From positions 64,001 through 128,000 of the forward strand of contig JAEOTR010000016.1 of NCBI GenBank assembly GCA_016839705.1: 64,000 bases of DNA. The letters are read 5' to 3'. Position 1 is the stretch's first letter. Each line of letters begins with the position of its first letter. This DNA is from Promethearchaeota archaeon (GTDB lineage: Archaea; Asgardarchaeota; Lokiarchaeia; Sigyniarchaeales; SOKP01). Below, piece after piece: positions 2,600 through 50,285 of this stretch. Made by a program: the position numbers and the translations under genes. The notes below the pieces were generated by a model. It had not been told where the DNA came from. It ran no database searches and saw nothing but the letters and a program-made list of their open reading frames with translations.

Positions 2600-3589
2600 A
2601 TGGTTGAAACAGAAGAAGGATTTATCTTTAATATTCAACGGTTTTCGACCGAAGATGGACCTGGCATTCGGACTACTGTGTTCTTTAAACAATGTCCATT
2701 AAAATGTATTTGGTGTCATAATCCTGAGTCAATTTTAAAGGATAGACAACTTGAATGGTTAAAACATAAATGTATTGGATGTAATAGCTGTATTGAAATA
2801 TGCAAACATAAGGCACTTTTCTTCAACGAAAGTGGATTAATAATTGATAGAGATATATGTACAAGTTGTGGGGAGTGTTCGGATGAGTGTCCTAGTACTG
2901 CTCTACATATGTGGGGTGAATATTGGAATTCAAATGATTTATTTAAAGAAATTCAAAAAGATAAGGTGTATTATACTCAATCGAAGGGAGGGGTTACTGT
3001 TTCTGGAGGTGAGCCTACAATTCAATCAGATTTTATCCTAAAATTTCTGAAAATGTGTAAGGAGGACGGCATTAACACTGCTCTTGATACGTGTGGATAT
3101 GCCCCAGAACATATTTACCGAAAACTATTACCCTATGTTGATCTTGTGTTATTTGATATCAAGGAAATTGATATGGAGAAGCATAAACAATTCACGAGTA
3201 TACCAAATGATTTAATCTTACGGAACGCTATTTGGCTTGCTGATTACATACGAAATAATAACAAACAGTTATGGGTAAGAACTCCTATAATTCCAAATTA
3301 TACCGCAACTGAAGAAAATATTAGAGCTATTGGAGAATTTATAGTGCATAAGTTGGGTAACACCCCCGAACGTTGGGATCTACTGGCTTTTAATAACTTA
3401 TGTTCTGCAAAATATGAACGTTTAAATCTTGAATGGCCCCTTAAAGATGAGCATTTAATGTTGAAAGCCCAAATGGAACACTTTTTAGAAATCGCAACAG
3501 GTACAGGAGTTAGAAATCCAAAATGGTCAGGTTTAGTTAAAAAACTAGAAGATAAAGAAGAAAATAAAAAAAGTATGGGAGTATTATAG
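2600..3589 (+). CDS. Glycyl-radical enzyme activating protein (radical SAM with ferredoxin insert)
   Basis: IQRFSTEDGPGIRTTVFFKQCPLKCIWCHNPE, two CxxCxxC ferredoxin motifs, GGVTVSGGEP, DTCG. Confidence 0.92.
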   Translation: MVETEEGFIFNIQRFSTEDGPGIRTTVFFKQCPLKCIWCHNPESILKDRQLEWLKHKCIGCNSCIEICKHKALFFNESGLIIDRDICTSCGECSDECPSTALHMWGEYWNSNDLFKEIQKDKVYYTQSKGGVTVSGGEPTIQSDFILKFLKMCKEDGINTALDTCGYAPEHIYRKLLPYVDLVLFDIKEIDMEKHKQFTSIPNDLILRNAIWLADYIRNNNKQLWVRTPIIPNYTATEENIRAIGEFIVHKLGNTPERWDLLAFNNLCSAKYERLNLEWPLKDEHLMLKAQMEHFLEIATGTGVRNPKWSGLVKKLEDKEENKKSMGVL

Positions 3590-49465: not shown

Positions 49466-50020
49466 TTGAATAATAAAGTTAGAAGAATTATGTCTAAAAG
49501 TAATATCGCGCTAATTGGGTTTATGGCAACAGGGAAAACTACAGTAGGGAAGGCACTGGTAGATTATCTAGGAAGCCCATACTCCTTCATTGAAACAGAC
49601 CAAATAATAATAGAGAATGTTGGAAAGGATATCCCAAAGATTTTTGCAGAAGAAGGTGAAAATAAATTTCGGGAATATGAAATATCTGCATGTAAACAAG
49701 TTTCCTTATTAAAAAATGTTGTGATTTCATGCGGGGGTGGCGTTGTGTTAAACAAGGTAAATATTGATAATCTAAAGAAGAATTGCTATATTATGTTATT
49801 AAAAGCATCGACCCAAGAGATATACACTAGAGCTATGAAGGATGGAAAGGAAACTAGACCTATTATTAATAAAGAAGATCCCAAAAGTGAAATAGAGGAT
49901 GTTCTAAAATTCCGGAATCCCTTATACAATAGTGCTGCAGATTTTGTTATTGAAACAACTGGTAAGAAAATTAGTGATATTGTTATAGAGATTGTTAAAA
50001 AAACCCATCTAAAAACCTAA
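49466..50020 (+). CDS. aroK: Shikimate kinase, bacterial P-loop type
   Basis: GFMATGKTTVG, GENKFR, SCGGGVV, RP, R..LY. Likely start is the Met of MSKSN. Confidence 0.92.
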   Translation: MNNKVRRIMSKSNIALIGFMATGKTTVGKALVDYLGSPYSFIETDQIIIENVGKDIPKIFAEEGENKFREYEISACKQVSLLKNVVISCGGGVVLNKVNIDNLKKNCYIMLLKASTQEIYTRAMKDGKETRPIINKEDPKSEIEDVLKFRNPLYNSAADFVIETTGKKISDIVIEIVKKTHLKT

Positions 50021-50076: not shown

Positions 50077-50285
50077 ATGACGGAATATAAAAGGACTAAA
50101 TGCCCAAAATGTAACAATGAGAATCCACGCATGCTCCATGATGAACCCGATAAGAGTAATATTCTTTACTACAGTATTGAAAACGTTATTTAAACTTTTC
50201 GCTGAAGCAGGGAACACCAGTTTATGCGCGAATCATAAAATGTGGCGATTGCGGAAACACATTTTCAAAATCTGCCCCAGCTTAA
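50077..50285 (+). CDS. Small zinc-ribbon protein (59 aa) split by a 29-nt BHB intron: join(50077..50177,50207..50285)
   Basis: Spliced product MTEYKRTKCPKCNNENPRMLHDEPDKSNILYYSMQGTPVYARIIKCGDCGNTFSKSAPA. CPKC and CGDC lie in different frames unless 50178-50206 is removed. A T-rich tract follows the stop. Confidence 0.8.
50178..50206 (+). other. Predicted archaeal bulge-helix-bulge intron in an mRNA (29 nt)
   Basis: Central helix CAGT(50172-75)/GCTG(50201-04); bulges AT^T and AA^G; inner stem GAAAA/TTTTC plus GTT/AAC; contains in-frame TAA (50191-93). Confidence 0.78.

Follow-up and report, generated by a model that had tools for sequence, protein, structure and literature searches.

A probable bulge-helix-bulge intron in a small zinc-domain gene of a Promethearchaeota archaeon

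The stretch of DNA analysed here, referred to as the window, comprises 64,000 nucleotides (nt) from a Promethearchaeota archaeon (GTDB lineage Archaea; Asgardarchaeota; Lokiarchaeia; Sigyniarchaeales; SOKP01; assembly GCA_016839705.1, contig JAEOTR010000016.1, positions 64,001 to 128,000 of the forward strand). Within it lies a small gene for a zinc-domain protein whose reading frame is interrupted by a 29-nt insert, very probably a bulge-helix-bulge (BHB) intron (Table 1). Read straight through, the gene yields a peptide of 38 amino acids (aa) that carries the first CxxC pair only and ends at the TAA codon at 50191-50193. The second CxxC lies in the +2 frame, where the stretch 50208-50285 encodes 25 residues and then a stop. 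Excision of 50178-50206 joins AU (50176-50177) to G (50207), creating a Met codon and leaving the frame open to the TAA at 50283-50285. The resulting product, spliced in silico, is 59 aa long and holds both CxxC pairs, i.e., four cysteines. An earlier note on this DNA had contrasted a half-site peptide with a full four-cysteine ribbon, and this holds to the base. Its description of the intron as frame-changing, with a length of 2 mod 3, is likewise borne out, both by the coordinates and by the 14 of 49 orthologues that are uninterrupted. The Met residue at the junction, Met35, is invariant across the family. As its codon is split AU/G by the insert, it can be obtained here solely through the joining of RNA.

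Table 1. Positions of the small gene, its putative intron, the predicted RNA elements and the further intron sites of the gene family (positions are those of the window unless a locus is named)
Feature	Position	Strand	Details
TATA-like box, TTTATAAA	50028-50035	+	in the 56-nt spacer; read directly from the sequence
Small gene, open reading frame	ATG 50077 to stop TAA 50283-50285	+	read from the sequence
Exon 1	50077-50177	+	33 codons and the AU of the split Met codon; first CxxC; tblastn match in 49/49 orthologous loci
Putative 29-nt BHB intron (site A)	50178-50206	+	same place and length in 35/49 congeners; absent with exact junction in 14/49
Exon 2	50207-50285	+	G of the Met codon, 25 codons with the second CxxC, TAA stop
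Outer helix, 5′ strand	50161-50170 (50161-50164, 50169-50170)	+	imperfect; covariation count
Central helix H, exon strand CAGU	50172-50175	+	third base of the Tyr codon and the Ser codon AGU
5′ three-base bulge AU/U	50176-50178	+	cut after 50177; between H and h′; junction of intronless orthologues
Intron hairpin h′	50179-50200	+	50179-50183 x 50196-50200; 50185-50187 x 50193-50195; loop 50188-50192
Central helix H, intron strand GCUG	50201-50204	+	covariation count and RNAalifold
3′ three-base bulge AA/G	50205-50207	+	cut after 50206; junction of intronless orthologues
Outer helix, 3′ strand	50209-50215 (50209-50210, 50212-50215)	+	imperfect; covariation count
Site B, inside the Tyr codon of PVY	G015 (L018:1428-1458)	-	31 nt, after a second CAGTAT
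Site C, Lys codon two residues past PVY	G016 (L006); metagenome contigs L101:1355-1384, L102:1355-1384		30 nt, in frame with stops
Site D, Lys codon directly after PVY	G057 (L045 = L213), L083:1326-1355, L187, L212		32 nt (L045) or 30 nt

Relatives of the gene reveal what an uninterrupted copy looks like. When the 38-aa front part was searched against 54 species genomes of the genus, 49 yielded an orthologue (E <= 1e-8); completeness of the five others is 58-97%. An insert of exactly 29 nt is found at the same nucleotide in 35 of these orthologues. The remaining 14 are uninterrupted and read AGT/TCN ATG CAR GG, which is the join predicted from cuts after 50177 and 50206. All 11 homologues examined from other genera of the same order are also uninterrupted and encode the same core. 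Ser-Met-Gln spans the predicted join in all 14 intronless congeners and in each of the 11 out-of-genus homologues. Removal of the insert in silico gives proteins of 54-59 aa in all 35 bearers, each with both CxxC pairs and the core LYYSMQGTPVY, a sequence with little or no variation among 38 uninterrupted homologues. In metagenome contigs that cover the site, the insert is present in 16 of 29 and absent in 13.

The RNA around the insert can be drawn as a BHB motif, with the exon bases CAGU pairing the intron bases GCUG to form a central helix (H). In the hand-drawn structure of the window all four pairs of H form, one of them as G-U. A three-base bulge lies on either side of H, and the interior of the intron folds into a hairpin (h′), whose region includes the in-frame TAA at 50191-50193. 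The outer helix has three of four pairs in its distal part and two of two in its proximal part, and an A.C mismatch adjoins the bulge, which confirms the imperfect outer helix described in the earlier note.

This structure was examined in a gap-free alignment of the 35 intron-bearing sequences (77 columns). Pairing in H is kept in 99.3% of cells, with one double change and one-sided changes, and h′ has changes on both sides in all seven counted pairs. In the distal outer helix, the column pair 10:60 joins two synonymous third-codon positions that covary (G-C 16, A-U 7, G-U 4, U-A 1 and unpaired in 7 of the 35). Overall, 93.9% of cells in the named structure are paired, against 88.5 +/- 0.6 in shuffled alignments, and 10 of 17 pairs are double-changed, against 5.4 +/- 1.2. 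None of 500 shuffles matches the real structure on any measure, a count that is not to be read as a probability since the 35 sequences are related. When the 3′ partners are slid by 1-3 columns, pairing falls to 18-51%. RNAalifold, unaided, predicts both H and h′, in agreement with the slid controls, and recovers for h′ the additional pair 50187 x 50193.

The exon half of H also leaves its mark on codon usage. The Ser codon that feeds the helix is AGY in 35/35 intron bearers, against 5/14 intronless orthologues, the other nine of which use TCN. In the single gene with AGC, the U-G pair of H becomes C-G. Together with the pairing in the distal outer helix, this choice of Ser codon and the maintenance of H indicate that the exon sequence adapts to the intron. 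The in-frame stop found where the intron ends arises incidentally from GCUG and the A-rich bulge. It has been noted that within 50187-50193 of the intron (alignment columns 34-40), identity reaches at least 90% in columns 34 and 37 and is complete in columns 38 and 40. This closing pair and loop are far more conserved than synonymous sites, for which dS between these species is about 0.9-1.3, and a constraint beyond base pairing may act on the loop.

Selection acts on both sides of the insert. Pairwise ratios of nonsynonymous to synonymous substitution (dN/dS) among the intron-bearing genes are 0.088 for exon 1 and 0.079 for exon 2; these derive from the 29 of 35 genes with 56 codons, with 0 < dS < 3 in 332 (exon 1) and 236 (exon 2) of 406 pairs. 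Purifying selection is equally strong on both exons, and exon 2 therefore appears to be translated in its shifted frame. An alternative is that the insert is never spliced, so that the gene is dead in its bearers or the ribosome skips the 29 nt by bypass or frameshift. Such an explanation could draw on the fact that gene callers annotate just a 42-aa front part, and on the stable hairpin with an in-frame stop, as found in bypass elements. Nevertheless, it is highly unlikely. Selection on exon 2 in the shifted frame rules out a dead gene, the 29-nt length is invariant while the helices covary, and the cut sites follow from the BHB geometry with single-nucleotide precision. Ribosome hopping is argued against by the position of the join inside a codon: the AU/G junction restores the invariant Met, which hopping between matched codons cannot do.

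It could also be asked whether the insert is an artefact of assembly or sequencing, or a repetitive mobile insertion such as a miniature inverted-repeat transposable element (MITE). The assembly is 3.36 Mb long in 97 contigs, with about 32% G+C, 93% completeness and 6.8% estimated contamination, and both its fragmentation and its contamination would allow for error. However, the same insert recurs in 35 independently assembled species genomes as well as in the metagenome contigs counted above. As to mobility, a covariance model built from the intron and short flanks recovers the intron itself as its sole significant match in its own genome, along with two marginal matches (E = 0.45 and 0.74). 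Across the 54 genus genomes the matches are limited to the 35 orthologous copies and one second copy within the same gene, in species G015 (E = 6.6e-4). There is no target-site duplication. Artefact or MITE is thus a vanishingly improbable origin.

Eight weak matches to the model in the genus were rejected, five lying antisense to a conserved open reading frame (ORF) of 432-438 aa and three inside uninterrupted frames. The five antisense matches (L065, L066, L068, L070 and L072, in five genomes) represent chance or coding-driven resemblance and not introns.

The history of the intron was traced on a tree of 170 columns, built from the C-terminal part of the neighbouring gene together with the small protein. 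On it, all 35 bearers fall into one clade with a single intronless row (L009), supported at 97/90. At minimum, two changes of intron state are needed on this tree, and none of 500 shuffles requires as few. The most economical account is a single gain followed by a single loss, unless one row is misplaced. The earlier note had held that sporadic presence would speak against its proposal; the position is instead retained at the same nucleotide throughout a single clade.

The enzymes that could remove such an intron are encoded in the same genome, on other contigs than the small gene. EndA is represented by one 205-aa open frame on contig C56 (L001/L131) that holds both the N and C domains, with matches to PF01974 (97.8 bits) and PF02778 (37.3 bits), and RtcB by a match to PF01139 of 564 bits. 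The RNase domain of IRE1 (PF06479) has no match in the genome, and none in 14 control genomes either, so that this negative lacks a positive control. ARAGORN reports introns in 19 of its 31 tRNA predictions, although the program is not tuned for archaeal introns. It was also observed that these are the only 31 tRNA genes predicted in 3.36 Mb and that some of the intron sizes are implausible (777 and 1290 nt). Many tRNA genes have probably been missed or mis-called because of non-canonical introns. Asgard tRNA genes are reported to be heavily interrupted (PMC11291895; bioRxiv 10.64898/2026.10.13.758758). Asgard archaea are further reported to possess an (alpha-beta)2 EndA with an L1 loop, a form tied to broad specificity, for which relaxed BHB motifs are described as ordinary substrates (PMC5829648).

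The reading favoured here, and held to be very probable, is that the insert is truly a BHB intron of the relaxed type, interrupting a protein-coding gene of an Asgard archaeon and removed constitutively by EndA and RtcB, and that it was gained once in the genus. In this scheme, the pre-mRNA would fold so that the four exon bases CAGU pair the four intron bases GCUG. EndA would then cut in both three-base bulges flanking helix H. RtcB would ligate the exons, recreating the Met codon from AU and G and with it the 59-aa, four-cysteine frame. The action of both enzymes on this RNA is predicted from their genes and from the motif. Splicing is most likely constitutive, as a plain requirement for a functional gene. 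The intron would have been gained once, at the base of the within-genus clade, and inherited thereafter.

Several points weigh against this reading. The minimum free energy fold of the single sequence 50150-50235 does not contain the BHB motif (z = -1.88). The 3′ site is non-canonical, with an invariant A.C mismatch beside the bulge, and RNAalifold favours a register (columns 16 x 54 and 17 x 53) that closes the 3′ bulge. A second EndA subunit, to be expected for an enzyme of broad specificity, was not detected by tblastn or Pfam in the 93%-complete assembly. The intronless L009 sits within the intron clade with a TCA Ser codon and a long branch, so that a loss in this row is not cleanly established. 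Splicing is predicted here from DNA sequence, in which this intron differs from that of the crenarchaeal gene cbf5, compared below. The difficulty at the 3′ site concerns the class of motif as well. The 5′ bulge is canonical, lying between H and the covarying h′, and the 3′ bulge is followed by the mismatch and a broken outer helix and has a competing register. Due to this mismatch and register, the motif is classed as a relaxed (HBh′-like) BHB.

Introns are not confined to one position in this family. The position in the window, after LYYS, is named site A, and three further positions are named B, C and D (Table 1). In the G015 gene, the intron at site B lies 17 nt downstream of that at site A. 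The two share 24 identical positions with a 2-nt indel and end in a common GCUG-AG at the 3′ side. The site B intron looks like a diverged intragenic copy of the first one, its target matching the exon half of helix H. No site B intron is present in the sister species G013 (L017). At site C, three of the four pairs of helix H form in G016 (L006), and the helix is perfect, UGCA/UGCA, in the two metagenome contigs. At site D, helix H covaries with the exon (UUAU/AUAA versus GUAC/GUAC). The four site D loci include at least three from different lineages, and the register in L083 is ambiguous owing to a 9-nt direct repeat. In-silico removal at sites B, C and D restores the conserved protein in each case.

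Among the best 80 loci in the collection of species genomes, a set that overlaps the genus set, 65 are intact, nine have site A only, one has A and B, three have D and two are unclassified. Four intron positions thus fall within a gene of 57 codons, and they cluster around the part that encodes a hairpin tip of the predicted protein. This cluster may be a true hotspot, or it may be a sample of a genome-wide habit. Certain database proteins attract attention in the same region: P0027, P0041 and P0044 end after PVY, and P0036 has a 12-aa insertion there. These may be further introns near PVY that gene callers have read through.

The frequency of such introns elsewhere in the genome was addressed by scanning for BHB-like motifs that fuse open frames. 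This gave 16,526 candidates, of which 3,670 passed stricter filters. With a codon-usage filter, the real geometry occurs at 3,092 places against 2,965-3,069 in three decoys, which is no resolvable excess over the contigs scanned (up to C92 of 97). The known intron itself scores low on this filter (0.02 and 0.12). As there is no excess over the decoys, the scan cannot count other mRNA introns in the genome.

Among eukaryotes, short mRNA introns are removed without the spliceosome in HAC1 and XBP1. The intron changes the reading frame and measures 26 nt in human XBP1. IRE1 cuts twin stem-loops within their loops, and a tRNA ligase joins the exons, which in metazoa is RtcB. The earlier note had likened the small gene to this system, and had proposed that the imperfect outer helix could make splicing conditional, tying it to EndA and RtcB activity. 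The likeness stands for the class of mechanism, namely a non-spliceosomal cut, RtcB-type joining and a change of frame, and the spliced and unspliced forms encode different C-termini in both cases. The data lend no support to an extension of the likeness to conditional use or stress control. The splice sites of the small gene lie in BHB bulges, with EndA as the proposed enzyme, and not in the twin loops cut by IRE1. In addition, the unspliced product is a truncated fragment with an unconserved tail.

According to the conditional model, the weak 3′ site would allow EndA/RtcB activity or RNA folding to decide between the 38-aa peptide and the full ribbon. All 34 scored unspliced frames end inside the intron or at its end (38 aa in 7, 42 in 24, 35 in 1 and 44 in 2, with one row of the 35 unscored), so unspliced mRNA cannot give the full protein. 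The competing register could hide the 3′ bulge, and the intron has been kept at a fixed length through a 35-species clade. The introns at three further positions in the same short gene would also fit, as interruption itself could be favoured. Even so, such a switch is unlikely. The same protein is made without an intron in 14/49 congeners and 11/11 out-of-genus homologues, and the unspliced tails vary in sequence, with no conservation. The +2 frame switch is not conserved either, as the other introns of the family measure 30 nt (in frame, with stops), 31 nt and 32 nt. The A.C mismatch is set by the invariant Tyr and Gln codons and is thus forced by the protein; as these codons dictate it, it need not be tuned for weak splicing. 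The small gene is unlinked to the genes for EndA and RtcB. Relaxed motifs, moreover, are reported as normal substrates (PMC5829648, PMC2738675).

A still larger claim would be that EndA/RtcB splicing of the mRNA acts as a gate on the output of the zinc-domain protein, as a prokaryotic counterpart of HAC1/XBP1, with the repeated gain of introns near the hairpin tip selected and not neutral. This is judged decidedly improbable; if true, it would provide an archaeal precedent for RtcB-dependent control of an mRNA.

As to the protein itself, a profile of the 38 uninterrupted homologues matches residues 288-333 of 7WHG chain G in the PDB (E = 1.5e-8). This chain is a two-domain gelsolin from Lokiarchaeota, and the matched part is its C-terminal Zn domain. 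The AlphaFold model (mean predicted local distance difference test score, pLDDT, of 82.6) depicts a zinc ribbon whose long beta-hairpin, residues 21-47, has site A at its tip. Both the structure prediction and the profile search thus agree with the ribbon proposed in the earlier note for the spliced product. The best match of the model against the PDB with Foldseek has E = 0.18. Searches of Pfam and NCBIfam returned generic zinc-ribbon matches below threshold, with no family reaching its cut-off. The label eS31/S27ae was rejected, at 18.7 bits against a cut-off of 54.

By profile similarity, the small protein is identified as a stand-alone copy of the Loki-specific Zn domain. This domain is described as the C-terminal part of Loki gelsolins, and of proteins unrelated to them, and can also make up a small protein by itself; its extended loop bears a conserved Tyr, it is hardly detectable outside Loki, and it is reported without association to F-actin (PMC9433394). 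The small protein shares the (CxxC)2 pattern and the long hairpin with a conserved Tyr. It differs in forming a distinct stand-alone subfamily with an invariant hairpin tip, LYYSMQGTPVY, and in its introns, which the consulted part of that paper does not mention. The genome of the window (G000) also encodes a gelsolin-like protein of 335 aa that ends in the Zn domain (L073:1015-2022, - strand) and a stand-alone paralogue of 64 aa that is nearer to the gelsolin copy (L074:432-626, - strand). Both genes are uninterrupted.

Upstream of the small gene lies a shikimate-kinase-like ORF (49466-50020), separated from it by a spacer of 56 nt. The TATA-like box in this spacer may be the small gene's own promoter. 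Of 35 loci examined, 34 retain this arrangement, with the shikimate-kinase-like gene ahead of the Zn-domain gene and both on one strand. As a neighbour control, the upstream gene gives one uninterrupted high-scoring segment pair in 34/35 loci and no match in one. The downstream gene is syntenic in just 7/35 loci. Scans of the window with ARAGORN and Rfam returned no matches. In public annotation, gene callers stop at the intron and truncate the product to 42 aa. The 42-aa "hypothetical proteins" P0042, P0043, P0045 and P0046 consist of exon 1 and an intron-encoded tail.

Compared with the BHB introns of tRNA and rRNA, the intron of the small gene has the same core, with a helix of 4 bp between two 3-nt bulges on opposite strands, half of it supplied by the exon. 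The same enzymes are proposed to act, and the organism's own tRNA genes also look interrupted. The difference is that the host RNA is here an mRNA, for which reason removal must restore a reading frame, and that an imperfect outer helix is built from coding sequence.

An intron in the pre-mRNA of cbf5 in Crenarchaeota was reportedly described by Watanabe et al. in 2002. Confirmed pre-mRNA splicing in archaea is stated to rest on this one gene, with introns of 16-44 bp that frequently have relaxed motifs (Yokobori et al. 2009, PMC2738675). The 29 nt of the present intron fall within this range, and its cleavage motif is relaxed as well. As described in that account, the cbf5 intron resembles it further in lying in the most conserved part of the protein, in its patchy presence among related lineages, in being misannotated by gene callers and in being attributed to a hetero-oligomeric EndA of broad specificity. 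The host gene differs, encoding a Zn-domain protein of 56-59 aa and not a pseudouridine synthase, as does the phylum, here the Asgard Promethearchaeota. A further difference is that one small gene family here has introns at four positions, one of them copied from another.

The literature searched yielded no account of an Asgard protein-coding gene with a BHB intron. The intron is most likely a new case of the kind known from crenarchaeal cbf5. As public annotation truncates this gene, similar genes may be missed elsewhere. How BHB introns arrive is left unresolved in the consulted part of a preprint on Asgard tRNA introns (bioRxiv 10.64898/2026.10.13.758758), and the diverged intron copy after a second CAGTAT offers a concrete case on this question. 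With 35 species, covariation and exact intronless alleles, the small gene would constitute a well-supported second case of its kind, from the archaeal group closest to eukaryotes.

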